From a virus (lineage: Duplodnaviria; Heunggongvirae; Uroviricota; Caudoviricetes): 31,781 bases of DNA. The translations under genes and the position numbers were made by a program. Below the pieces are notes generated by a model that was given only the letters and a program-made list of their open reading frames with translations, ran no database searches and was not told the origin of the DNA. The DNA is taken from IMG/VR virus record IMGVR_UViG_2579778929_000008. One strand, written 5' to 3'. How positions within the stretch are numbered: position 1 is the first letter of the stretch; each line of letters begins with the position of its first letter. Shown one piece after another: positions 7,549 to 31,781 of the stretch.

Positions 7549-7737
7549 ATTACAAACCATATTCACTTTAGATGCCCGTGTTGTCATGGTTCCCAGTATA
7601 GAACATCATCTTTTGATGTTTCTGACATGAATCCTTTCGGGGCAAAATGTATCTTTTGTAAATCAATGATGATTACATTTGATAATATTTCACAATACTT
7701 AAATGCCAGCCGTCTGTCGTTGGATTTAAAAAAGTGA
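7549..7737 (+). CDS. Zinc-ribbon-like ORF with no canonical start codon (possible ATT start or decayed gene)
   Basis: Open frame from 7528 to TGA at 7735-7737 encodes ...HIHFRCPCCHGSQYRTSSFDVSDMNPFGAKCIFCKSMMITFDNISQYLNASRLSLDLKK. No ATG/GTG/TTG lies upstream of the CPCC motif; GAGG (7537-7540) sits 8 nt before an ATT at 7549. First in-frame ATG is at 7627. Confidence 0.25.
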   Translation: MTNHIHFRCPCCHGSQYRTSSFDVSDMNPFGAKCIFCKSMMITFDNISQYLNASRLSLDLKK

Positions 7738-7744
7738 AAATGAA

Positions 7745-7766
7745 GGCTCCTTCGGGAGCTTTTTTG
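7745..7766 (+). terminator. Intrinsic terminator downstream of cspI
   Basis: GGCTCC-TTCG-GGAGCT hairpin followed by TTTTTT. Confidence 0.6.
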
Positions 7767-7809
7767 CTTGGTATCTATTCGATGGATACTCACATACTAC
7801 GGTAACATC

Positions 7810-8040
7810 ATGAAAAAAATCATAGTTTTTTTTAACTCTGAACCAGCAGTGGTAGTGCCAGCGATGACTGGAGTTAACACCATCATGCGTGAATATCCAA
7901 ATGGCGAAAAAACACACCTTACTGTAATGGCCGCAGGGTTTCCATCTCTGACCGGAGATCATAAAGTCATTTATGTAGCCGCGGATCGACATGTTACTTC
8001 AGAAGAAATTCTGGAAGCAGCAATAAGGCTCTTGAGTTGA
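7810..8040 (+). CDS. Hypothetical small protein (76 aa)
   Basis: ATG at 7810, TGA at 8038-8040. Product MKKIIVFFNSEPAVVVPAMTGVNTIMREYPNGEKTHLTVMAAGFPSLTGDHKVIYVAADRHVTSEEILEAAIRLLS has protein-like composition. No strong SD; track ORF begins upstream at 7768. Confidence 0.4.
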   Translation: MKKIIVFFNSEPAVVVPAMTGVNTIMREYPNGEKTHLTVMAAGFPSLTGDHKVIYVAADRHVTSEEILEAAIRLLS

Positions 8041-8211
8041 TTTGATGCTATTGTATTGATAATTCAGGAAAATTCTCTTTGTCTGTTTGTGTAAAATTTA
8101 GACTATCGTATGTTGATTATTGCGATGTTTCATCTTATCTTTTACACGTTTGCACCATATAATCGACTTACTGTGTAACTGGAAAGTCATAACAGACTAA
8201 AAGAGGAAATG

Positions 8212-8385
8212 ATGAATATTGAAAACTTAAAAACAAAAGCAGAAGCAGATATTTCTGAATATATAACAAAAAAAATTATTGAACTTAAGAAAAAGACCGG
8301 GAAAGAAGTTACCAGTATTCAGTTTACCGCACGGGAAAAAATGACGGGTCTTGAAAGCTATGATGTCAAGATTAATTTAATCTGA
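8212..8385 (+). CDS. gnsB: GnsA/GnsB-family small protein (57 aa)
   Basis: AAGAGGA (8201-8207) then ATG at 8212 (an in-frame ATG also at 8209). Product MNIENLKTKAEADISEYITKKIIELKKKTGKEVTSIQFTAREKMTGLESYDVKINLI resembles GnsB as recalled. Absent from the ORF track because it is under 60 aa. Confidence 0.75.
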   Translation: MNIENLKTKAEADISEYITKKIIELKKKTGKEVTSIQFTAREKMTGLESYDVKINLI

Positions 8386-8412
8386 TGTATTCAATAATAA
8401 AATTTATCCATA

Positions 8413-8438
8413 AACCTCGTTTTTACGGGGTTTTGTTA
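8413..8438 (+). terminator. Probable intrinsic terminator after gnsB
   Basis: AACCTCG-TTTTTA-CGGGGTT hairpin (one G-U pair) followed by a T-rich tract. Confidence 0.4.
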
Positions 8439-8536
8439 TATTTGAATGGTTCCGAATATCTAAATCACAATTGTTGATGGTTTTTATTAAACCAATGCAG
8501 TCCGGCTCAGGAGTGAGAGAAGCCGGACGTTATGGT

Positions 8537-8947
8537 TTAGCGTGGTAAGATCTGTGTAGTTTTCTGGATGCTTTCAGTAAATAGTAATGAGTTATCAAAG
8601 GCATAGTAATATCTTTGGTGTTCCTGGATATTTGTAACCCATCGGAAAACTCCTGCTTTAGCAAGATTTTCCCTGTATTGTTGAAATGTGATTTCTTTTG
8701 ATTTCAACTTATTATAGGAGGTCTCTATAAGATGTTTGTTTCTGGAGAATTTAACATTTACAACCTTTTTGAGTCCTTTTACTAACACTATGTTGTCGTT
8801 TTCTAACACAATGTGAATATTATCTGTGGCTAAATAGTAAATATAAAGTGAGACATTGTGACGTTTTAGCTCAGAATAAAATAATTCACAGTTTAAATCT
8901 TTACGCACTTGATCGAATATTTCTTTAAAAATGGCAGCCTGAGCCAT
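8537..8947 (-). CDS. ydfO: YdfO-like DUF1398 protein (136 aa)
   Basis: Minus-strand ORF; GGAAGG RBS precedes ATG at 8947 (track ORF starts 5 codons upstream at 8962 without RBS). Product [47 protein letters not shown]... Confidence 0.7.
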
Positions 8948-9247
8948 TGGTAAACCTTCCATGTGATACGATGGCGCGTAGTTAGCATTATCGTGTTTAT
9001 TGTTTCAATCTGGTCTGACCTCTTTGTGTTTTGTTGATGATTTATGTCAAATATTAAGCCTGTTTTTGATGAATAGTGTTGATTGCGTAACAAAATTGAG
9101 CCTTGCTGGCATCCAGGAGGGATATGCAACCGACAGATGTATGTAAGGTCGATGTACTCAAACTTTCATACTTTTCCTCTTTTATGCAGTAAGATTTGAA
9201 GTAATATTTTAACCGCTAGATGACGAGCAAACGCATGGAGCGACAAA

Positions 9248-9454
9248 ATGAATAAAGAACAATCTGCTGATGAACTCTCGTTGGATCTGATTCGTGTAAA
9301 AAATATGCTTAATAGCACCATTTCTATGAGTTACCCGGATGTTGTAATTGCATGTATAGAACATCAGGTGTCTCTGGAAGCATTCAGGGCAATTGAGGCA
9401 GCGTTGGTGAAGCACGATAAGAATTCGAAGGATTATTCCCTGGTGGTTGACTGA
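9248..9454 (+). CDS. Hypothetical small acidic protein (68 aa), possibly ynfO-like
   Basis: GGAG (9237-9240) 7 nt before ATG at 9248; TGA at 9452-9454. Confidence 0.45.
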
Positions 9455-9631
9455 GCACCATAACTGCTAATCATTCAAACTATTTCACCTGTGACAGAGT
9501 CAATATCGCATTCTGTCACTGTCAGGCTAATACAGAGCTGCAATTCAACTACTGCAATGTCCTCGTAATTAGGTGAATTTACAATATCGTCCTGTTCGGA
9601 TGCCGGTTGCATTGCTGAATATGAGGCATTT

Positions 9632-10000
9632 ATGCGTGACTCGCCAGGTCCCGGCTATGTGCATTTCCCTGACTGGCTGGGGAGCTGGTTTTACGACGAA
9701 CTGACGTATGAAGAGCGGAGCAGTGACGGGAAATGGAGTAAGCCGGGTCGCGGTGCCAACGAAGCTTTTGACCTGATGGTGTATGCCGAGGCTCTGGTCA
9801 TTCTGCATGGATACGAAAAGATCCGCTGGCCGGATGCACCGGAGTGGGCGAGCCGGGAAACCTGGCTGGAGTGTGTCCCGGACAGTACCGAACCGTCACC
9901 CACACCGGAACCGGTATCCACGCCTGTTAAAAAACAAAAACGGAAGAAAACAGTAACTGACGATGTTAACCCCTGGCTGACTTCCGGAGGATGGTTATGA
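9632..10000 (+). pseudogene. Terminase large subunit (lambda gpA-like), C-terminal ~120-codon remnant only
   Basis: ...DGKWSKPGRGANEAFDLMVYAEALVILHGYEKIRW... resembles the extreme C-terminus of lambda-family large terminases. No upstream terminase reading frame and no small-subunit gene. Sits directly before W and portal as in lambda. Confidence 0.6.
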
Positions 10001-10209
10001 ACCAGAATGATATCGAAGCCATGATTCAGCGTTATACGGAAGCTGAAATGGCGGTGCTGGACGGAAAATCCGTCACCTTTAATGGTCAGCAGATGACCAT
10101 GGAAAACTTATCTGAGATCCGGCAGGGACGGCAGGAGTGGGAGCGCCGCCTTGCGGCTCTGATTACACGACGACGGGGGCATCCCGGGTACCGGCTGGCG
10201 AGGTTCTGA
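9991..10209 (+). CDS. W: Head-tail joining protein W-like
   Basis: CCGGAGG RBS then ATG at 9991; 72 aa; stop overlaps portal start (TGATG at 10207-10211). Position between terminase and portal as in lambda. Confidence 0.7.
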   Translation: MVMNQNDIEAMIQRYTEAEMAVLDGKSVTFNGQQMTMENLSEIRQGRQEWERRLAALITRRRGHPGYRLARF

Positions 10210-11717
10210 TGGCAATTCTTGATGATGTGATTGGCGTTTTTTCACCAGGATGGAAAGCGGCAAGGCTGCGTTCCCGTGCGGTGATCCAGGCTTATGAGGC
10301 CGTAAAAACGACACGGACACACAAAGCCCGGCGGGAAAACCGAACTGCCGACCAGTTAAGCCAGTACGGGGCCGTGTCGTTACGTGAGCAGGCCCGTTAC
10401 CTTGATAACAACCACGATCTGGTTATTGGTGTATTTGACAAGCTGGAAGAACGGGTGGTGGGGAAAAACGGGATTATTGTCGAGCCACATCCGGTATTAC
10501 GCAATGGGGCCATTGCCCGTGATCTGGCAGCGGAGATACGCACCCGATGGAGTGAATGGTCTGTCAGTCCGGAAGTCACCGGGCAGTTTACCCGTCCGAT
10601 GCTGGAACGTCTGATGCTGCGTACCTGGCTGCGCGATGGTGAGGTGTTTGCCCAGATGGTTTCCGGGCACATAAACAGCCTGACGCCTTCTGCCGGTGTT
10701 CATTTCTGGCTGGAGGCGCTCGAGCCGGACTTTATTCCCATGACCAGTGATGAGAGCAACAGGCTGAATCAGGGCGTGTTTGTTGATGACTGGGGGCGTC
10801 CCGAAAAATATCTGGTGTATAAAAGCCGTCCCGTATCCGGGCGGCAGATGGAAACCAAAGAAGTGGATGCAGAGCGAATGCTGCATCTTAAATTTGTTCG
10901 CCGTCTGCACCAGATGCGCGGGACGTCTTTGTTGTCCGGTGTGCTGATCCGCCTCAGTGCCCTGAAAGAGTATGAAGATTCTGAGCTGACTGCAGCAAGG
11001 ATCGCCGCTGCTCTGGGGATGTACATCCGGAAAGGCGACGGGCAGAGCTATGAACCGGATGGTAATGGCAGCAAGGAGAATGAACGCGAGCTTACCATTC
11101 AGCCAGGCATTATTTACGACGATCTGAAACCCGGCGAAGAAATCGGAATGGTGAAGTCGGATCGTCCCAATCCTAACCTTGAAACTTTTCGTAATGGTCA
11201 GTTGCGTGCCGTGGCGGCGGGCAGTCGTCTGAGTTTTTCCAGTACGGCACGCAACTATAACGGCACTTACAGCGCCCAGCGTCAGGAGCTGGTTGAATCC
11301 ACTGATGGCTACCTGATCCTGCAGGACTGGTTTATTGGTGCCGTCACCCGCCCGATGTATCGTGCCTGGCTGAAACAGGCTGTGGCATCCGGTGTTATCA
11401 GGCTACCCCGCGATCTTGATCGTTCTTCACTGTATACCGCGGTGTATTCCGGACCGGTGATGCCGTGGATTGACCCTGTTAAGGAGGCTGAGGCCTGGAA
11501 AATTCAGATTCGTGGTGGAGCGGCGACAGAATCAGACTGGGTACGTGCAGGTGGTCGTAATCCGGATGATGTCAAACGTCGGCGCAAGGCCGAAATTGAT
11601 GAAAACCGCAAGCTGGATCTGGTATTTGATACCGATCCGGCCAGTGATAAAGGAGGCAGCAGTGCCGCAACGAAACGACAGGAGCCGCAGCACACCGACG
11701 ACCAGTCCGAAGAATAA
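10209..11717 (+). CDS. B: Portal protein (lambda gpB-like), 502 aa
   Basis: ATG at 10209 coupled to the W stop (track ORF begins upstream at 10137 in the same frame). Size and gene order as lambda B. Confidence 0.85.
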   Translation: MAILDDVIGVFSPGWKAARLRSRAVIQAYEAVKTTRTHKARRENRTADQLSQYGAVSLREQARYLDNNHDLVIGVFDKLEERVVGKNGIIVEPHPVLRNGAIARDLAAEIRTRWSEWSVSPEVTGQFTRPMLERLMLRTWLRDGEVFAQMVSGHINSLTPSAGVHFWLEALEPDFIPMTSDESNRLNQGVFVDDWGRPEKYLVYKSRPVSGRQMETKEVDAERMLHLKFVRRLHQMRGTSLLSGVLIRLSALKEYEDSELTAARIAAALGMYIRKGDGQSYEPDGNGSKENERELTIQPGIIYDDLKPGEEIGMVKSDRPNPNLETFRNGQLRAVAAGSRLSFSSTARNYNGTYSAQRQELVESTDGYLILQDWFIGAVTRPMYRAWLKQAVASGVIRLPRDLDRSSLYTAVYSGPVMPWIDPVKEAEAWKIQIRGGAATESDWVRAGGRNPDDVKRRRKAEIDENRKLDLVFDTDPASDKGGSSAATKRQEPQHTDDQSEE

Positions 11718-11730
11718 TTCCTGGTTCAGG

Positions 11731-13689
11731 ATGCAGGCAGGTCACCAGAGTGACGCGGATATTTATATTTATGACGAGATTGGTTTCTGGGGTGTTACAG
11801 CGAAGCAGTTTATCAGTGATCTGAATGCACTGGGCGATATCACCCACATTAATCTCCATATTAATTCACCGGGTGGCGATGTCTTTGAAGGCATCGCCAT
11901 TTTTAATGCACTGAAAACACATGGTGCGTCCATTACCGTTTATGTCGACGGTGTGGCGGCGTCAATGGCGTCGGTCATTGCGATGGTGGGAAACCCGGTC
12001 ATTATGCCGGAAAACTCCTTCATGATGATTCATAAACCATTTGGCTTTACGGGCGGTGATGCGGAGGACATGCGCACCTATGCCGACCTGCTCGATAAAG
12101 TTGAGGCGGTTCTGTTACCCGCTTATGCACAGAAAACCGGGAAAACCACCGATGAAATTGCTGCCATGCTGGCGGATGAGACCTGGATGTCCGGTGCCGA
12201 ATGTCTGGCACAGGGATTTGCTGATCAGGTGACACCAGCCGTTAAGGCAATGGCATGTATTCAGTCAAAACGTACAGAGGAATTTAAAAAGATGCCGGAA
12301 TCCATTCGAAACATGATTACTCCGCCACGCAACAGTGCTCCACGCGTACAGGATGATGAACCTGCAGCCTCCCGGACGCCAGTGCAGGCAGCAGCACCCG
12401 TGGTGGATGAAAACAGTATCCGTGCGCAGGTACTGGCAGAGCAAAAAGCGCGTGTAAACGGTATTAATGATCTGTTTGCCATGTTTGGCGGGCGTTATCA
12501 GACGCTGCAGGCTCAGTGTCTTGCCGATCCTGAGTGTTCGCTGGAGCAGGCCCGCGAAAAGCTGTTGAACGAGATGGGGCGCGAGTCCACGCCATCCAAT
12601 AAAAATACACCGGCTCATATTTATGCTGGTAACGGTAATTTTGTGGGGGACGGGATCCGCCAGGCGCTGATGGCGCGTGCCGGATTTGAAAAAACCGAAC
12701 GTGATAATGTCTACAACGGGATGACCCTGCGTGAATATGCCCGTATGTCACTGACTGAACGGGGTATTGGGGTTTCCGGTTATAACCCGATGCAGATGGT
12801 CGGTGCGGCGTTCACCCACAGTACGTCTGACTTCGGTAATATTCTGCTGGATGTTGCGAACAAAGCCATTCTGCAGGGCTGGGAAGATGCTCCTGAAACC
12901 TATGAACAATGGACGCGGAAAGGTCAGTTGTCTGATTTTAAAATTGCCCATCGTGTGGGTATGGGGGGCTTCAGTGCTCTGCGTCAGGTGCGTGAAGGGG
13001 CGGAATATAAATACGTCACCACCGGAGATAAACAGGCCACTATTGCACTGGCGACCTATGGCGAGCTGTTCAGTATCACCCGTCAGGCCATTATCAATGA
13101 TGATCTGAATATGCTGACCGATGTCCCGATGAAACTGGGCCGTGCGGCGAAATCCACTATTGCCGATCTGGTTTATGCCATTCTGACGTCTAACCCGAAA
13201 ATCTCCACAGATAATGTAAGTCTGTTCGATAAAGCGAAACATGCAAACGTACTGGAGAGCGCTGCAATGGACGTGGCATCGCTGGATAAAGCCCGCCAGT
13301 TGATGCGCGTTCAGAAAGAGGGGGAGCGTCATCTGAATATTCGTCCTGCGTTCGTACTGGTACCGACGGCGATGGAGTCTGTTGCTAACCAGGTCATTCG
13401 CTCCTCAAGTGTCAAGGGGGCTGACATTAACGCCGGTATTATTAACCCGGTGAAAGATTTTGCGACCGTTATTGCAGAGCCTCGTCTTGATGATAACAGC
13501 CAGACCACCTTCTACCTGGCTGCGTCAAAAGGCTCCGATACGATTGAAGTGGCTTATCTCAACGGTGTGGATACGCCATATATTGATCAGATGGAGGGCT
13601 TCAGTGTGGATGGCGTGACAACGAAAGTGCGTATTGACGCCGGTGTCGCGCCAGTTGATCACCGCGGTCTGGTGAAATGTACGGCGTAA
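11731..13689 (+). CDS. Head maturation protease (ClpP/S49-like) - scaffold-like linker - major capsid protein fusion, 652 aa
   Basis: N-terminal region ...IYIYDEIGFWGV...INSPGGDVFEGIAIFNALK...VDGVAASMASVI... is ClpP-like. Central region is Ala/Gln-rich. C-terminal ~300 aa are capsid-like. One continuous frame from ATG at 11731 (track ORF starts inside portal at 11470). Confidence 0.75.
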   Translation: MQAGHQSDADIYIYDEIGFWGVTAKQFISDLNALGDITHINLHINSPGGDVFEGIAIFNALKTHGASITVYVDGVAASMASVIAMVGNPVIMPENSFMMIHKPFGFTGGDAEDMRTYADLLDKVEAVLLPAYAQKTGKTTDEIAAMLADETWMSGAECLAQGFADQVTPAVKAMACIQSKRTEEFKKMPESIRNMITPPRNSAPRVQDDEPAASRTPVQAAAPVVDENSIRAQVLAEQKARVNGINDLFAMFGGRYQTLQAQCLADPECSLEQAREKLLNEMGRESTPSNKNTPAHIYAGNGNFVGDGIRQALMARAGFEKTERDNVYNGMTLREYARMSLTERGIGVSGYNPMQMVGAAFTHSTSDFGNILLDVANKAILQGWEDAPETYEQWTRKGQLSDFKIAHRVGMGGFSALRQVREGAEYKYVTTGDKQATIALATYGELFSITRQAIINDDLNMLTDVPMKLGRAAKSTIADLVYAILTSNPKISTDNVSLFDKAKHANVLESAAMDVASLDKARQLMRVQKEGERHLNIRPAFVLVPTAMESVANQVIRSSSVKGADINAGIINPVKDFATVIAEPRLDDNSQTTFYLAASKGSDTIEVAYLNGVDTPYIDQMEGFSVDGVTTKVRIDAGVAPVDHRGLVKCTA

Positions 13690-15365: not shown

Positions 15366-15737
15366 ATGACCACACCAAATCCACTGGCAAAGACGAAAGG
15401 TGCGGGGACGACGTTCTGGATGTATACCGGCAACGGCGATGCGTTTGCGAACCCTTTGTCGGACACTGACTGGCTGCGTCTTGCGATGGTGAAGGATCTG
15501 CAACCTGGCGAAATGACCGCTGATGCAGAAGATGACACTTATCTCGATGATGAAGATGCAGACTGGAAAACGACAACCCAGGGGCAGAAATCCGTTGGTG
15601 ATACTTCGGCGACGCTGGCCTGGCGTCCGGGTGACAGCGGGCAGAAAAACTGGTTCAGTTGTTCGACTCCGGTGAAGTCTGCGCGTTTCGTATCAAATAT
15701 CCCAACGGCACTGTTGATGTTTTCCGTGGCTGGCTGA
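15366..15737 (+). CDS. V: Major tail protein V, N-terminal part (reading frame lost after an A5 run at 15645-15649)
   Basis: AAGGAGG RBS then ATG at 15366. [52 protein letters not shown]...DDEDADW... matches lambda V as recalled, up to ...GDSGQK; beyond that the frame encodes unrelated residues to a stop at 15737. Confidence 0.75.
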
Positions 15738-16108
15738 GCTCACTGGGTAAAACCATTGCCTCAAAAGACGTGATGACCCGCACTGTGAAAATCAGCGGTG
15801 TGGGGCGTCCGTATCTGGCAGAGGAAGGCACTGAAACCGTGAGCGTTACCGGGCTGACAGTATCACCGGCGTCTGCCAGTGTAAAAGTGGGAGCAACCAC
15901 CACGCTGACCTTTACAGTAAAACCTGACGGAGCCAGTGACAAAGCGATCAGTGTGCATTCGTCAGATCCACAGACTGCCACGGTTACCCTGAACGGACTT
16001 GTGGCCACGGTAAAAGGCGTGAAGCAGGGCAGTGTCAGCATTGTGGGCATGACCGCTGACGGGAATTTTGTGGCTGTGACTGCGGTGACTGTCAGCGCAG
16101 CAGGTTAA
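15659..16108 (+). CDS. V: Major tail protein V, C-terminal part (continues V in the -1 frame; includes Ig-like Big_2 domain)
   Basis: Frame reads ...[35 protein letters not shown]...[33 protein letters not shown]..., matching the middle and C-terminus of lambda V as recalled. Track start at 15659 is a TTG. Confidence 0.75.
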
Positions 16109-16128: not shown

Positions 16129-16152
16129 GCCCCGGTTATGCGGGGCTTTTTT
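16129..16152 (+). terminator. Terminator-like hairpin plus T-run between V and G
   Basis: GCCCC-GGTTATGC-GGGGC followed by TTTTTT, immediately upstream of the G RBS. Confidence 0.45.
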
Positions 16153-16165
16153 GCAGGTGGAGAAC

Positions 16166-16555
16166 ATGATGTTTCTGAAACAGGACACGTTTAATTATGA
16201 AAAACAGTCCGTGGTGCTCAGTGAGCTGTCCGGGCAGCAGAGAATTGAATATCTGACGTTTGTTCAGCAGCGAACGGCAAAGTTTGATGCCGGGGAGGGA
16301 GAACTGCCGGAGGCTGAACGACAGATTGCTTTTCTGCGGATGGGGATGGATATCAATGCCTGGCTGGTTTCCCGCTCACTGTGGAATGCGGATCAGTCTA
16401 AGGATGTAGAGACGCTTTGCGCATCCGTTATTACAACATGGTCGTATGATGCCCTGGGTGCGGGGGCGGAGATGGTTCTGTCGCTGAGCGGTATGGGGGC
16501 CATTGATAATGCCGTGGATGATGAGCATGAGGCGCTGACGCCGGAAAAGTCCTGA
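16166..16555 (+). CDS. G: Tail assembly chaperone G
   Basis: GGTGGAG RBS then ATGATG at 16166. MMFLKQDTFNYEKQSVVLSELSGQQRIEYLTF... resembles lambda gpG. TGA at 16553-16555. Confidence 0.8.
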   Translation: MMFLKQDTFNYEKQSVVLSELSGQQRIEYLTFVQQRTAKFDAGEGELPEAERQIAFLRMGMDINAWLVSRSLWNADQSKDVETLCASVITTWSYDALGAGAEMVLSLSGMGAIDNAVDDEHEALTPEKS

Positions 16556-16893: not shown

Positions 16894-19800
16894 TTTGGGG
16901 ATTGATGCGGCAGAGTTTAAAAATGAAATTCCCCGTATCAAAAACCTTCTGAATGGTGCAGCCAGCGATGCAGAACGGTCTTCTGCCCGTATGCAGCGTT
17001 TTATGGAGCGTCAGACTCAGGCTGCCCGGCAGACAACGCAGGCAGCTTCTTCGGCTGCAACAGCCGCATCCGTCCATGCGCAGACGGTGGAGAAGAACGC
17101 ACAGGCTCATGAACGCATGGCCCGCGAGGTGGAGAAAACCCGCCAGCGCATGGAGGCACTGAGCCAGAAAATGCGCGAGGAACAGGCGCAGGCCATGGCT
17201 CTGGCGGAGGCTCAGGATAAAGCGGCTGCTGCGTTTTATCGTCAGATTGACAGTGTGAAACAGGCCAGTGCGGGGCTGCAGGAATTACAGCGTATTCAGC
17301 AGCAGATCCGACAGGCCAGAAACAGTGGCGGGATTGGTCAGCAGGATTATCTGGCGCTGATTTCTGAGGTTACGGCGAAAACCCGTGTTCTTACGCAGGC
17401 TGAGGCAGAGGCTACCCGACAGAAAGTGGCGTTTATCCGTCAGCTTAAAGAGCAGGCAACCCGCCAGAATCTTTCTTCTTCTGAGTTGCTTCGTGCCAGG
17501 GCTGCCCAGCTGGGGGTAAGCAGTGCTGCAGAAGTGTATATCCGCAAAATGGAGCGGGCAGGAAAAGCCACGCATTCGCTGGGTCTGAAAAGTGCAGCGG
17601 CCCGCCAGGAGATAGGCGTTCTGATAGGTGAACTGGCCCGCGGCAATTTAGGGGCGCTGAGGGGATCCGGGATAACGCTGGCTAACCGTGCCGGATGGAT
17701 AGACACACTGATGTCACCGAAAGGCATGATGCTGGGCGGGGTTATTGGCGGTATTACCGCGGCCGTCTATGGTCTGGGTAAAGCCTGGTATGACGGTCAG
17801 AAGGAGGGGGAAGAATTTAACCGCCAGCTGTCGCTGACGGGGCATTATGCCGGAGTCACTGCCGGGCAGCTGTGGACGCTCAGTCGTGCTATTTCCGGGA
17901 ATGGTATCACGCAACATGCTGCAGCCGGTGCGCTGGCTCAGGTGGTGGGGAGTGGTGCATTTCGTGGAAACGATATCGGTATGGTGGCGAGAGCTGCCGC
18001 ACAGATGGAGCGATCGGTTGGCCAGTCGGTCAGCGATACCATAAATCAGTTTAAGCGGCTGAAGGATGATCCTGTAAATGCCGCGAAGGCTCTGGACAAT
18101 GAGCTGCATTTTCTTACTGCCACTCAGCTTGAGCAGATACGTGTCCTTGGGGATCAGGGACGGTCCAGTGATGCTGCACGGATAGCCATGTCTGCACTGG
18201 CAGAGGAAACCGGTCGGCGTACTGCGGATATTGATAATAACCTCAATGCGCTTGGCAGTACGCTGAAGTATCTGTCTGATTTGTGGAGTCGTTTCTGGGA
18301 TGCGGCCATGAATATTGGTCGTGAAGACTCGCTGGATGAACAGATTGCCGCTTTACAGGAGAAAGTGTCGCGGGCGAAAAGACTCCCCTGGACGGCATCA
18401 TCTTCTCAGGTTGAATACGATCAGCAGCGTCTTAACGATCTTCAGGAGAAAAAACGCCAGAAGGATTTGCAGGATGCAAAAGAGCAGGCAGAGCGGAATT
18501 ATCAGGAGCAACAGAAACGACGTAATGCTGAAAATGCTGCACTGAACCGGATGAATGAAACGGAAGCAGCACGACATCAGCGTGAAATTGCGCGTATTAA
18601 TTCCATGCAGTACGCCGATCAGGCTGTCAGGGATGCAGCGATACAACGTGAAAATGAACGTTACGAGAAAGCCCTGGCATCCGGTAAGAAAAAAACACGC
18701 GAAACCCGTAATGATGAGGCCACCCGGTTATTGCTGCAGTACAGTCAGCAACAGGCACAGGTGGAAGGACAGATTGCTGCTGCAAGACAGTCAGCAGGCA
18801 TTGCCACTGAAAAGATGACAGAAGCGCATAAACAGCTTCTGGCTCTGCAGCAGCGCATCAGCGATCTGGACGGGAAAAAACTGACGGCAGATGAAAAGAG
18901 TGTGCTGGCCCGTAAAGATGAACTGATTCAGGCACTGACGCTGCTGGATGTAAAACAGCAGGAGCTTCAGAAACAGACGGCACTCAACGATCTGAAGAAA
19001 AAAACAATTCAGCTGACCAGTCAACTGGCTGAAGAAGAGCGCGCTCAGCGTCAGCAACATGACCTGGATATCGCCACGGTGGGTATGGGTGATCAGCAGC
19101 GGCAGCGATATCAGGTACAACTGAGTCTTCGCCAGAAATACCAGCAACAGCTGGAGCAGTTGAGGCGGGAGAGTGAGCAGAAAGGGACATATAACACGGA
19201 TGACTACAGAAAGGCCGAGCAGGCGCTGACGGAGAGCCTGAACCGACAACTGAATGAGAATCGCCGTTACTGGCAACAGCTTGAAGTTGTGCAGGGTAAC
19301 TGGAAAAACGGAGTCCTGCGTGCATTTCAGGATTTTACCGTGGATGCAGATAATACGGCAGGAACAGCAGAACAGGTGTTCTCGTCAGCCTTCAGCAACA
19401 TGGGTAATGGCCTGGCAACTTTTGTCACTACCGGCAAACTCAATTTCAAATCCTTCACCTCTTCTGTGCTGTCAGATATGGCGAAAATCCTGGCGCAGGC
19501 AACCATGATGAAATCGATAAAAGGGATTGGCAGTGTACTGGGATTTGATCTCAGCAGCCTTTCCCTGAATGCCAATGGGGGGATTTATCAGTCTGCTGAT
19601 TTGAGTCGTTACAGTGGCACGGTGGTTAACCGTCCGACGTTTTTTGCTTTTGCAAAAGGCGCGGGTGTGATGGGTGAAGCGGGACCTGAAGCCATTCTGC
19701 CTCTGCGTCGTGGTGCTGACGGTAAGCTGGGGGTTGTGGCGGATATTGGTGGTTCAGGTATGGCGATGTTTGCCCCGCAGTACAACATCGAGATCAATAA

Positions 19801-20971: not shown

Positions 20972-21715
20972 ATGACAGAGACAGAATCAGCGATTCTGGC
21001 GCACGCCCGGCGATGTGCGCCAGCGGAGTCGTGCGGCTTCGTGGTGAGAGCGCCGGAGGGGGAAAGATATTTTCCCTGCGTGAATATTTCCGGTGAGCCG
21101 GAGGATTATTTCCGGATGGCTCCGGAGGACTGGCTGCAGGCAGAGATGCAGGGTGAGATTGTGGCACTGGTCCACAGCCACCCCGGTGGTCTGCCCTGGC
21201 TGAGTGAGGCCGACCGGCGGCTGCAGGTGCAGAGTGATTTGCCGTGGTGGCTGGTCTGCCGGGGGGCGATTCACAAGTTCCGCTGTGTGCCACATCTTAC
21301 CGGGCGGCGCTTTGAGCACGGGGTGACGGACTGTTACACGCTGTTCCGGGATGCTTACCATCTGGCGGGGATTGAGATGCCGGATTTTCATCGCGAGGAT
21401 GACTGGTGGCGTCACGGTCAGAATCTCTATCTGGATAATCTGGAGGCCACAGGGCTGTATCAGGTGCCGTTGTCAGCGGCGCAGCCGGGCGATGTGCTGC
21501 TGTGCTGTTTTGGTTCATCGGTGCCGAATCATGCCGCCATTTACTGTGGTGACGGCGAGCTGCTGCACCATATTCCTGAACAACTGAGCAAACGAGAGAG
21601 GTATACCGACAAATGGCAGCGACGCACACACTCCCTCTGGCGTCACCGGGCATGGCACGCATCTGCCTTTACGGGGATTTACAACGATTTGGCCGCCGCA
21701 TCGACCTTCGTGTGA
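20972..21715 (+). CDS. K: Tail assembly protein K (MPN/JAB plus NlpC/P60-like domains)
   Basis: ATG at 20972 is 5 nt after the L stop (track ORF starts upstream at 20930). HSHPGG (JAMM-like) motif. Position as lambda K. Confidence 0.85.
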   Translation: MTETESAILAHARRCAPAESCGFVVRAPEGERYFPCVNISGEPEDYFRMAPEDWLQAEMQGEIVALVHSHPGGLPWLSEADRRLQVQSDLPWWLVCRGAIHKFRCVPHLTGRRFEHGVTDCYTLFRDAYHLAGIEMPDFHREDDWWRHGQNLYLDNLEATGLYQVPLSAAQPGDVLLCCFGSSVPNHAAIYCGDGELLHHIPEQLSKRERYTDKWQRRTHSLWRHRAWHASAFTGIYNDLAAASTFV

Positions 21716-22320: not shown

Positions 22321-22761
22321 ATGGGTAAAGGCAGCAGTAAGGGGCATACCCCGCGCGAAGCGAAGGACAACCTGAAGTCCACGCAGCTGCTGAGTGTGAT
22401 CGATGCCATCAGCGAAGGGCCGGTTGAAGGTCCGGTGGATGGATTAAAAAGCGTGCTGCTGAACAGTACGCCGGTGCTGGACAGTGAGGGGAATACCAAT
22501 ATATCCGGCGTCACGGTGGTGTTCCGGGCCGGTGAGCAGGAGCAGACACCGCCGGAGGGATTTGAATCCTCCGGCTCCGAGACGGTGCTCGGTACAGAAG
22601 TGAAATATGACACGCCGATCACCCGGACCATCACGTCGGCAAACATTGACCGTCTGCGTTTTACTTTCGGCGTGCAGGCACTGGTGGAAACAACCTCAAA
22701 GGGGGACAGGAATCCATCGGAAGTCCGCCTGCTGGTTCAGATACAACGTAACGGTGGCTGA
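22321..22761 (+). CDS. J: Tail tip attachment/host specificity protein J, N-terminal 146 codons ending at an in-frame TGA
   Basis: MGKGSSKGHTPREAKDNLKSTQLLSVIDAISEGPVEGPVDGLKSVLLNSTPVLDSEGNTNISGVTVV...LVQIQRNGG then TGA at 22759-22761. As I recall lambda J, the next residue is Trp (TGG). Confidence 0.85.
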   Translation: MGKGSSKGHTPREAKDNLKSTQLLSVIDAISEGPVEGPVDGLKSVLLNSTPVLDSEGNTNISGVTVVFRAGEQEQTPPEGFESSGSETVLGTEVKYDTPITRTITSANIDRLRFTFGVQALVETTSKGDRNPSEVRLLVQIQRNGG

Positions 22762-25719
<2,958 letters not shown>

Positions 25720-29400: not shown

Positions 29401-29863
29401 GGATTTGGGGACGAAAACCACATCGTCGTTTGATTACGGCACTAAATCCACGAATAACACCGGGGCGCATACGCACAGTCTGAGTGGCTCTACGGGGTCT
29501 GCCGGTGATCATACTCATGGTAATGGTATTCGTTGGCCAGGAGGCGGCGGTTCTGCGTTAGCATTTTATGATGGCGGTGGGTTCACTTATGTCCAGGATT
29601 CACAGTATCAAGTAAGGCCGGAGACTTCTTCCTATAGATCGTATTATCAACGTATTCAGACACAGTCAGCAGGTGCTCATACCCACTCGCTGTCTGGTAC
29701 TGCAGCAAGTTCTGGCGCACATGCACATACTGTAGGTATTGGTGCGCATACGCACTCCGTTGCGATTGGTTCACATGGACACACCATCACCGTTAACGCT
29801 GCGGGTAACGCGGAAAACACCGTCAAAAACATCGCATTTAACTATATTGTGAGGCTTGCATAA
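26450..29863 (+). CDS. stf: Side tail fiber protein (Stf), 1137 aa
   Basis: ATG at 26450 (track starts at GTG 26444). N-terminus [37 protein letters not shown]... and C-terminus ...GAHTHSLSG...[22 protein letters not shown] match lambda Stf as recalled. Long Ala/Ser/Thr-rich repeats; His-rich GxHxH motifs near the C-terminus. Confidence 0.85.
26800..27800 (+). repeat. Imperfect tandem coding repeats inside stf (Ala/Ser/Thr-rich; units such as AAKTSETNA / [13 protein letters not shown])
   Basis: Recurrent nucleotide motifs (GCGGCAAAAACGTCAGAAACGAATGC and variants) produce low-complexity ORFs in all three forward and reverse frames (track ORFs 26847..27854 and 26947..27684). Confidence 0.6.
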
Positions 29864-30447
29864 TGGCATTCAGAATGAGTGAACAAGCACGGACCATAAA
29901 AATTTATAATCTGCTGGCCGGAACTAATGAATTTATTGGTGAAGGTGACGCATATATTCCGCCTCATACAGGTCTGCCAGCAAACAGTACCGATATTGCA
30001 CCACCAGATATTCCTGCTGGCTTTGTGGCTGTTTTCAACAGTGATGAGGCATCGTGGCATCTCGTTGAAGACCATCGGGGTAAAACGGTTTATGACGTAG
30101 CGTCAGGGGGCGAGTTATTTATTTCTGAACTCGGTCCGTTACCGGAAAATGTTACCTGGTTATCGCCGGAAGGGGAGTTTCAGAAGTGGAACGGCACAGC
30201 CTGGGTGAAGGATACGGAAGCAGAAAAACTGTTCCGGATCCGGGAGGCGGAAGAAACAAAAAACAGCCTGATGCAGGTAGCCAGCGAGCATATTGCGCCG
30301 CTTCAGGATGCTGCAGATCTGGAAATTGCAACAGAGGAAGAAATCTCGTTGCTGGAAGCCTGGAAAAAGTATCGGGTGTTGCTGAACCGTGTTGATACAT
30401 CAACTGCACCTGATATTGAGTGGCCTACGAACCCTGTCAGGGAGTAA
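29863..30447 (+). CDS. tfa: Tail fiber assembly protein Tfa (194 aa)
   Basis: Start overlaps the stf stop (TAATG). [79 protein letters not shown]... matches lambda Tfa as recalled. Confidence 0.9.
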
Positions 30448-30496
30448 TCATTGGGATTATGCCGCAGCACGTCTTAAGCAAGAACGTGCTGCGGTT
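30292..30496. repeat. Direct repeat copy 1 (~205 bp; tfa 3' end plus ~50 bp downstream including a 10-bp-stem palindrome)
   Basis: ATTGCGCC...GTTGATACATCAACTGCACCTGATATTGAGTGGCCT...CCTGTCAGGGAGTAATCATTGGGATTATGCCGCAG...CGTGCTGCGGTT recurs at 31341-31546 with roughly 85-90 percent identity by eye. Confidence 0.7.
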
Positions 30497-30501
30497 GGAT
30501 G

Positions 30502-31158
30502 CTATTTTTTCCCTGAAGCGGAAAACATTACTACAGTACCTTGAACCTTGGTTTTAACATTCTCGAAATGCTCTGAGAGTATATGTGTTAAGCCTTCTTC
30601 GGAATCTTTTGTGTTTGAAAAGATGCCTTTCTGATTGTAAATGCGCATCAGTTTTTGACCGAAGCTATTGTGCACAACTCCATCGCCAAGAATTGTGGCT
30701 CCGTATAGAGTTCCATCGTCAGTTAAGGCCTGCGCCGCATTGCGTATTACACAGCTTTTTGTAGATATATTTCCAGGCAGGCAGTGAAGAAGGTAAAACA
30801 TGGAAATGGAATCAAATTGACCATGTAACGCCGCGGGATAAGGTTCAAAAACATCATGGCTAATTTTATGTTTAATTTTTGATTCCCCAGCCCTTGTAGA
30901 TGCCGCGTTCAGGCTAGCTTCGTTCAAATCCATTAAAGATATCAGACTACTCTCAGGTACGTGAGTAAGGTAAAACCCAGTTCCAACACCAATATCCAGA
31001 TGGTTGTTACCTACATGTTCCAGAAAGTGTGGAAGAAGGTGTTCCTTTGTAGGACATCCCCATGCAAGCCGATTTGATACTCCCAAAACCCACCAGTCAT
31101 AAAGCTTTAGGGTAAGTGGTGTGTAAATTTTAGCCCCATCATCTGTGTTTTTTTTCAT
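30502..31158 (-). CDS. Class I SAM-dependent methyltransferase (218 aa), substrate unknown; AT-rich moron
   Basis: Minus-strand ORF; GGTGA RBS 5 nt before ATG at 31158 (track start 31170 has no RBS). Motif I ...HLDIGVGTGFYL... in a Rossmann-fold context. No DPPY/NPPY motif, so probably not an amino-methylating DNA methyltransferase. Markedly AT-richer than flanking phage genes (by eye). Confidence 0.7.
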   Translation of the reverse strand: MKKNTDDGAKIYTPLTLKLYDWWVLGVSNRLAWGCPTKEHLLPHFLEHVGNNHLDIGVGTGFYLTHVPESSLISLMDLNEASLNAASTRAGESKIKHKISHDVFEPYPAALHGQFDSISMFYLLHCLPGNISTKSCVIRNAAQALTDDGTLYGATILGDGVVHNSFGQKLMRIYNQKGIFSNTKDSEEGLTHILSEHFENVKTKVQGTVVMFSASGKK

Positions 31159-31226
31159 TGATTTCACCATGTTATAGTTTTATTTGTGAATTAAATCAAT
31201 TATGGCGATGAATTACAAGGGGTTAA

Positions 31227-31496
31227 ATGCTGCCGCAGCATAGCGATATTGAAATAGCCTGGTATGCTTCGATACAGCAGGAGCCGAATGGCTGGAAGAC
31301 CGTCACCACACAGTTCTACATCCAGGAATTCAGTGAGTATATTGCGCCACTGCAGGATGCTGTAGATCTGGAAATCGCAACGGAGGAAGAAAGATCGTTG
31401 CTGGAGGCATGGAATAAATATCGGGTATTGTTGAATCGTGTTGATACATCAACTGCACCTGATATTGAGTGGCCTGCAAATCCTGTCAGGGAGTAA
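31227..31496 (+). pseudogene. Second, truncated tfa-like ORF (89 codons; C-terminal domain only)
   Basis: C-terminal 55 aa (...[51 protein letters not shown]) are near-identical to the Tfa C-terminus at 30286-30447; N-terminal 35 aa are unrelated. AAGGGG RBS precedes the ATG, so it may still be translated. Confidence 0.55.
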
Positions 31497-31546
31497 TCAT
31501 TGGGATTATGCCGCAGACACGTCGTATGCAGGAACGTGCTGCGGTT
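31341..31546. repeat. Direct repeat copy 2
   Basis: See copy 1 (30292-30496). Confidence 0.7.
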
Positions 31547-31610
31547 AGTTTGTGAGCTTTCGATAGTGGTTGTTATTTTTGCCCTTATTTGTTCCGGAGG
31601 CCATGGTTCA

Positions 31611-31781
31611 ATGGTCCGTCTGCCCCCTATGGTGATGTCAGCAAAATCAGCCACTGCGCGAACCACAATAGCCCGGGAAGATGCTGAAGATCACCAGGTA
31701 AAGCTATCAGCGCAGAAACTGGAAGAACTGCTCGCATCAATGGTTAAGGATGAGGTTGATCGCAATGATGGGATTTATTGA
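31611..31781 (+). CDS. Hypothetical small protein (56 aa)
   Basis: GGAGG (31596-31600) about 10 nt before ATG at 31611; TGA at 31779-31781, the last bases of the window. Product MVRLPPMVMSAKSATARTTIAREDAEDHQVKLSAQKLEELLASMVKDEVDRNDGIY. Track ORF starts upstream at TTG 31500. Confidence 0.3.
   Translation: MVRLPPMVMSAKSATARTTIAREDAEDHQVKLSAQKLEELLASMVKDEVDRNDGIY

Follow-up and report, generated by a model that had tools for sequence, protein, structure and literature searches.

The tail genes of phage lambda follow the order Z-U-V-G-T-H-M-L-K-I-J, and the V product, gpV, consists of a tube domain (PF16461) followed by an Ig-like domain (Big_2). Solved structures represent its N-terminal domain (2k4q), its Ig-like domain (2l04) and the tail tube (6p3e, 8iyk). 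Without gpV a lambda-type phage does not polymerise a tail tube. The chaperones of tail assembly, G and GT, depend on a programmed -1 frameshift for which lambda uses the slippery site G GGA AAG. In the defective lambdoid prophages Qin, Rac and DLP12 of E. coli K-12, morphogenesis genes have been hit by frameshifts, nonsense codons, deletions and IS elements; the 'defective prophage pool' of O157 Sakai and the stf frameshift of lambda PaPa provide comparable disabled prophage genes.

The stretch of DNA analysed here, 31,781 nucleotides long and called the window, contains a phage of the mEp460/cdtI group in which the tail genes are arranged as in lambda. Its V gene, once the reading frame is restored, encodes the same two domains as gpV, but the sequence has diverged and is interrupted after residue 94. 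The damage resembles that seen in the K-12 prophages just named. The Qin-locus neighbours are hokD, rem, ydfU, ydfT, cspB, essQ/essD, rrrQ, rzpQ, cspI and gnsB and, further on, tfaQ, pinQ and ydfK; the K-12 Qin markers also found in the window are ydfU, ydfT, cspB, cspI, essQ, rrrQ, rzpQ and pinQ. The prophage of the window is far less decayed than K-12 Qin, and it is because almost the whole head and tail region has been retained that the successive steps of decay can be put in order.

Other parts of the window set it apart from lambda. The head gene at 11662-13689 (in an ORF extending from 11470 to 13689) encodes a 675-aa fusion of a ClpP-like prohead protease with the major capsid protein, which also occurs in mEp460/cdtI-type phages, whereas lambda has separate C, Nu3 and E genes. 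The sequence G GAA AAG at 16543-16549 (alternatively the tetramer A AAG), which differs from the lambda slippery site, is located three codons before the G stop codon at 16553-16555, and the T frame is open in -1 to 16893; as judged from the sequence, this is likely the programmed -1 frameshift site of G/GT. Between V and G, at 16129-16153, a GC-rich hairpin is followed by a T run (CCCCGGTTATGCGGGGCTTTTTT), and the equivalent site of mEp460 is annotated as a rho-independent terminator.

The two ends of the window have their own features. Positions 1-357 lie inside a copy of the IS5-like ISKpn26 transposase and correspond to 701-1057 of L002, one of the loci used for comparison (numbered with the prefix L). 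That the contig breaks off at a repeat points to a draft assembly from short reads. At the right end, positions 29480-31781 depart from both complete genomes that carry the V lesion described below, with just 94% identity in the C-terminus of the tail fibre and tfa. A minus-strand ORF in this region (30502-31170) resembles a class I SAM-dependent methyltransferase that in strain B4103-1 is found beside tail-fibre-assembly fragments. It may be that the tail-fibre module at this end has been recombined or inverted.

The V gene and its break point

V starts with an ATG preceded by the ribosome-binding site AAGGAGG. Across a run of five A residues (A5) the zero frame reads GGT GAC AGC GGG CAG AAA AAC TGG and continues to a stop codon at 15735-15737, whereas the lambda-V-like sequence carries on in the -1 frame until the stop codon at 16106-16108. 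The window contains no intact single V ORF: the frame is broken at the run and the product ends at 15737. The features of the gene and of two further lesions are listed in Table 1.

Table 1. Position of the V gene, its parts and the other lesions in the window
Feature	Position	Strand	Basis or remark
Gene for the major tail tube protein (homologue of lambda V), a pseudogene interrupted by a 1-nt deletion	15366..16108	+	Restored ORF, PF16461 + Big_2
A5 run, where the 1 nt is deleted (intact relatives: A6)	15645..15649	+	Alignments to five relatives
5' fragment ORF, 123 aa: 94 authentic V residues and a 29-residue out-of-frame tail	15366..15737	+	
3' fragment, read in the -1 frame and encoding the second half of the tube domain and the C-terminal Ig-like (Big_2) domain	15647..16108	+	
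Second lesion: in-frame TGA in J, the tail tip gene (relatives have TGG)	22759..22761	+	PGAP 'internal stop' in both complete A5 genomes
Third lesion: junction of a terminase deletion of ~2.6 kb	9630..9634	+	Window joins L001 position 7722 to 10330

In-silico insertion of a single A at the run yields one ORF of 247 codons. The protein restored in this way matches the entire PF16461 profile (positions 1-135 of 135) with 224 bits (cut-off 26.1) and contains a Big_2 domain at residues 161-238. In PDB sequence matches, residues 1-245 align with chain 6p3e_A of lambda gpV (E = 4e-87), residues 1-153 with 2k4q, the N-terminal tube domain, and residues 160-245 with 2l04, the Ig-like domain. When the two fragments are taken separately, the 5' ORF covers PF16461 positions 1-78 and the 3' ORF covers positions 82-135 and Big_2. 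The break after residue 94 falls at position 78-82 of the 135 profile positions, within the part of the tube domain that aligns with 2k4q. The first in-frame start codon of the 3' part, TTG at 15659, has no obvious Shine-Dalgarno sequence, and this part is without a convincing start of its own. V is flanked, according to PGAP and Pfam, by Minor_tail_Z and Phage_tail_U on one side and by Phage_TAC_2 (G), Phage_tail_T and the tape measure gene on the other. It occupies the place of a lambda-type tube protein gene between the tail terminator U and the chaperones G/T.

These results agree with much of what the first-pass annotation had read from the letters alone. Its assignment of a V-like gene is borne out by the full PF16461 profile, the Big_2 domain and the end-to-end alignment with gpV, and its proposal to align both ORFs with lambda V returned the two complementary stretches of the tube profile and a restored protein that matches gpV. 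The frame switch was correctly placed at AAAAA, where relatives have exactly one A more than the window. One added A does restore a single gene, of 247 codons compared with the approximately 246 that had been predicted. Judged from its reading frames, the V gene of the window is a pseudogene of the lambda-type tube protein family (PF16461 + Big_2) and not a functional member. The frameshift is already annotated in RefSeq, where PGAP labels the gene "phage tail protein, frameshifted" in two genomes (NZ_CP135649.1 and NZ_CP189662.1), and the gene is an ordinary pseudogene in a defective prophage. The depositors of the sister isolates named the 5' half "putative major tail protein V" and the 3' half "bacterial Ig-like domain family protein".

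Distribution of the A5 run and its association with other lesions

The length of the A run was counted in 26 loci. All five aligned relatives (mEp460, mEp460_ev081, cdtI, 500465-3 and the prophage of B4103-1) have A6, and V of mEp460_ev081 and strain B4103-1 is identical to that of the window across the gene save for the extra A. Seventeen phage records cover V in full; the gene spans 744 nt in 16 of them and 743 nt in phage 500465-3. The latter was considered as a fellow A5 case and rejected, since it has A6 here and is missing a G in a different run. The intact V genes of mEp460, mEp460_ev081, cdtI, PhiR55_1 and Qin-locus prophages such as that of NZ_CP062910.1 share 95-99.9% nucleotide identity with the window, and the Qin-locus prophages of other E. 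coli strains (e.g. NZ_CP062910.1) agree with it in chromosomal locus and gene order. These intact relatives possess A6, a single V ORF of 744 nt, and an intact terminase and J, whereas the window has none of these. In a survey of 5426 complete E. coli genomes a 181-nt V segment was present in 1845, of which the best 60 were listed. An exact A5 match was obtained in two of these 60 best-matching genomes, TUM14664 from Japan (NZ_CP135649.1) and 102651 from the Gambia (NZ_CP189662.1); the matches in the remaining 58 are 182 nt long and so exceed the query by one base.

The exact 123-aa product was found on 101 contigs in 156 index blocks of NCBI, ENA and Logan. Among the loci fetched, A5 is present in eleven clean loci besides the window, a number that includes the window's own record (L010, GCA_000627475.1, contig JJLS01000155.1). 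With this contig the window agrees at 100% and with identical coordinates over 5366-25737, and it is probably the first 31.8 kb of the contig. The clean set comprises the two complete genomes, GCA_905134055.1, GCA_053190085.1, GCA_000627475.1, GCA_000627455.1, GCA_029999455.1, GCA_029997535.1 and the ENA gut metagenome assemblies ERZ27246787 and ERZ28581190. Over 12.8 kb, the ten clean A5 loci other than L017 differ from each other by 0-8 SNPs; L017 differs from them by 38-45 SNPs, possibly due to a recombined patch, and about 100 SNPs separate the A5 lineage from its nearest A6 relative. Compared with NZ_CP062910.1, the nearest intact Qin-locus relative, in which all structural genes are annotated as intact, the window is 99.0% identical, with 157 substitutions over 15.8 kb. 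Three one-base indels occur in this distance, two of them intergenic and the third, the sole coding indel, in the V run.

The A5 loci carry further lesions. The TGA codon splits J (22321-25719) into ORFs of 146 and 985 aa. Lost to the terminase deletion are the small terminase (DUF1441) and, of the large terminase, the N-terminal three quarters; all that is left is an ORF (9632-10000) for a 122-aa remnant of the GpA nuclease. Among the loci checked, the string across the deletion junction is present only in L002, L010, L011, L013 and L017; among complete genomes only that of strain 102651 has it, and the deletion is otherwise found in several draft and metagenome contigs. Of the 5426 complete E. 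coli genomes, just the two with A5 contain the exact 141-mer with the J TGA, and none of the 5426 is an A6 revertant with the J-TGA marker. Three classes can be distinguished: A5 alone (L014, L015, L016), A5 with the J TGA (L001, L009), and A5 with the J TGA and the terminase deletion (window, L002, L010, L011, L013, L017), the SNPs 16236A and 19405T marking a subgroup within the last class. Comparison of lesions and SNPs shows the series from A5 to the J TGA to the terminase deletion to be nested with zero homoplasy. From this nesting we infer that the V frameshift preceded the J nonsense codon, which preceded the terminase deletion. In the 19 kb of L015 the V frameshift is the sole disruptive lesion, accompanied by the in-frame loss of 6 nt in J, as would be expected if the V frameshift had been the first disabling step. 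Private lesions are found in individual strains: TUM14664 has an IS1 in the tape measure gene (L001 18315-19012), and L014 (GCA_029999455.1) lacks 1 nt in the tape measure gene, at the equivalent of window position 18656, and 33 nt in K (equivalent to 21025-21057). Such private lesions would fit ongoing decay, and the later lesions would fit relaxed selection after loss of function.

Origin and consequence of the missing base

It is highly probable from these sequence comparisons that the lack of one A is a real mutation, the loss of a single A from A6, which would have arisen once and been inherited as a V pseudogene in a decaying Qin-locus prophage. Of the options offered in the first-pass annotation, that of a genuine inactivating mutation is supported by the occurrence of A5 throughout a lineage and its linkage to other lesions. 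Had the true sequence been A6 with an intact V, the missing A would be a homopolymer under-call, as the same annotation had also considered. This happens at the site: other V alleles (P0004 and P0005) show A5 as well, in assemblies in which most phage genes are fragmented, and L020 has additional one-base deletions in G6 and A6 runs that are typical of homopolymer error. The changes from A6 to A5 on other V alleles in L018-L025, L008 and L012 are apparent under-calls of this kind; among the protein variants of the other alleles, residue 23 is N or K and the out-of-frame tail has A or V. To regard P0004 and P0005 as recurrent independent events at a hotspot was rejected in view of the fragmented contigs and the homopolymer losses in L020, and they are read as sequencing noise. 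L008 and L012, which contain the exact 123-aa product, were rejected as members of the lineage on account of their divergent context (81-96% identity); each of their aligned segments, 2.7-5 kb long, contains some 30 gap openings or more. By contrast, the window contains no other coding indel in the 15.8 kb compared with NZ_CP062910.1, and the same A5 recurs in eleven other clean loci from separate samples and countries (L010 being the window's own record), including an ENA metagenome contig with a 'k141_' name, the short-read naming style of MEGAHIT. A5 is perfectly linked to the SNPs and lesions of the lineage and is absent from the other 58 best-matching complete genomes listed. The same lesion in independent assemblies, congruent with the other markers, is what an inherited mutation leaves behind; A5 is taken as real because a random homopolymer miscall would not track the phylogeny. 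While the suspicion of an artefact is reasonable in general at a site that is error-prone on some platforms, it does not apply to the lineage of the window, for which an under-call is very improbable. The simplest reading of the sequences is that one deletion event took place in an ancestor of the prophage lineage and has been inherited since.

A real A5 would still permit the formation of full-length V if ribosomes slipped by -1 on G AAA AAC, if a tRNA-Lys shifted by +2, or if RNA polymerase slipped during transcription; the split would then be functionally tolerated or even regulatory. G AAA AAC is an imperfect version of the IS1-type heptamer A AAA AAC, the shift required is indeed -1 at an A-rich run ending in AAC, a Shine-Dalgarno-like GGTGA lies 10 nt upstream of the run, and a genuine programmed -1 shift is located 900 nt downstream in G/T, likewise in the tail cluster and at an A-rich site. 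The G/T shift, however, is conserved in all relatives and situated at the end of G, whereas the V split is confined to one lineage, interrupts a domain and destroys the protein. Programmed sites are conserved, but A5 occurs in just two of the 60 best-matching complete genomes listed (of 1845 with the segment) and in none of the five aligned relatives. The zero-frame heptamer does not conform to the canonical X XXY YYZ, and the P-site tRNA would have to re-pair with GAA. No stimulatory structure was found in the 80 nt at 15651-15730, which fold with an MFE of -11.4 kcal/mol compared with a mean of -18.0 for shuffled sequences (z = +2.37), worse than each of the 200 shuffles. The motif GAAAAAC occurs 16 times in the window. 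Five A residues are too short for efficient transcriptional slippage, and lambda needs roughly 200 copies of V per tail. Additional lesions that inactivate J, the terminase and the tape measure gene accumulate in the lineage, as expected after loss of function. With a common motif and no structure downstream, a programmed frameshift at V was rejected, and the slippage-prone site that had been suggested finds no support as a functional element. Continued synthesis of full-length V by recoding is very unlikely, and so is a leaky A5 at which a low level of slippage by -1 (or +2) on G AAA AAC would provide a little full-length tube protein. Were it leaky, the frameshift would be a throttle on tail production and not a knock-out, at least where it is the sole lesion, as in L015. 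Least probable, to a degree that makes it nearly negligible, is a reversible mutational switch in which alternation between A5 and A6 would silence and reactivate tail production within the population. Mutations do concentrate in homopolymer tracts and the same run is affected in several backgrounds, but the other A5 backgrounds stem from noisy assemblies, a tract of six bases is short for phase variation, the clean members of the lineage (12 with the window) all have A5 with no revertant among the genomes that carry the J-TGA marker, and the later lesions render a reversion useless.

For the inherited deletion the following course of events is proposed. In an mEp460/cdtI-type prophage at the Qin locus of E. 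coli, one A would have been deleted from A6, the codons AAA AAA for Lys-Lys, most likely by replication slippage. Loss of an A from AAAAAA is a classic outcome of such slippage. Translation would quit the V frame after residue 94, inside the tube-forming domain, and reach a stop codon 29 codons further on. Full-length tube protein would not be made and the prophage would probably be unable to build tails, although V could be supplied in trans by another prophage in the same cell. The mutation, having arisen once, would have been inherited vertically by the bacterial lineage while decay of the prophage presumably continued with the J nonsense codon, the terminase deletion and then the private IS1 and other lesions of each strain.

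V in the window is correctly annotated as a frameshifted major tail protein pseudogene and the prophage as defective, since it lacks tube protein and terminase and its J is truncated. For pseudogene calls from noisy data the run is a caution, in that linkage to other markers separates a real lesion from an error. Past annotation the significance of the lesion is little; near-identical public copies let the order of decay be read, and they provide a small example of the erosion of a Qin-type prophage toward the remnant present in K-12.
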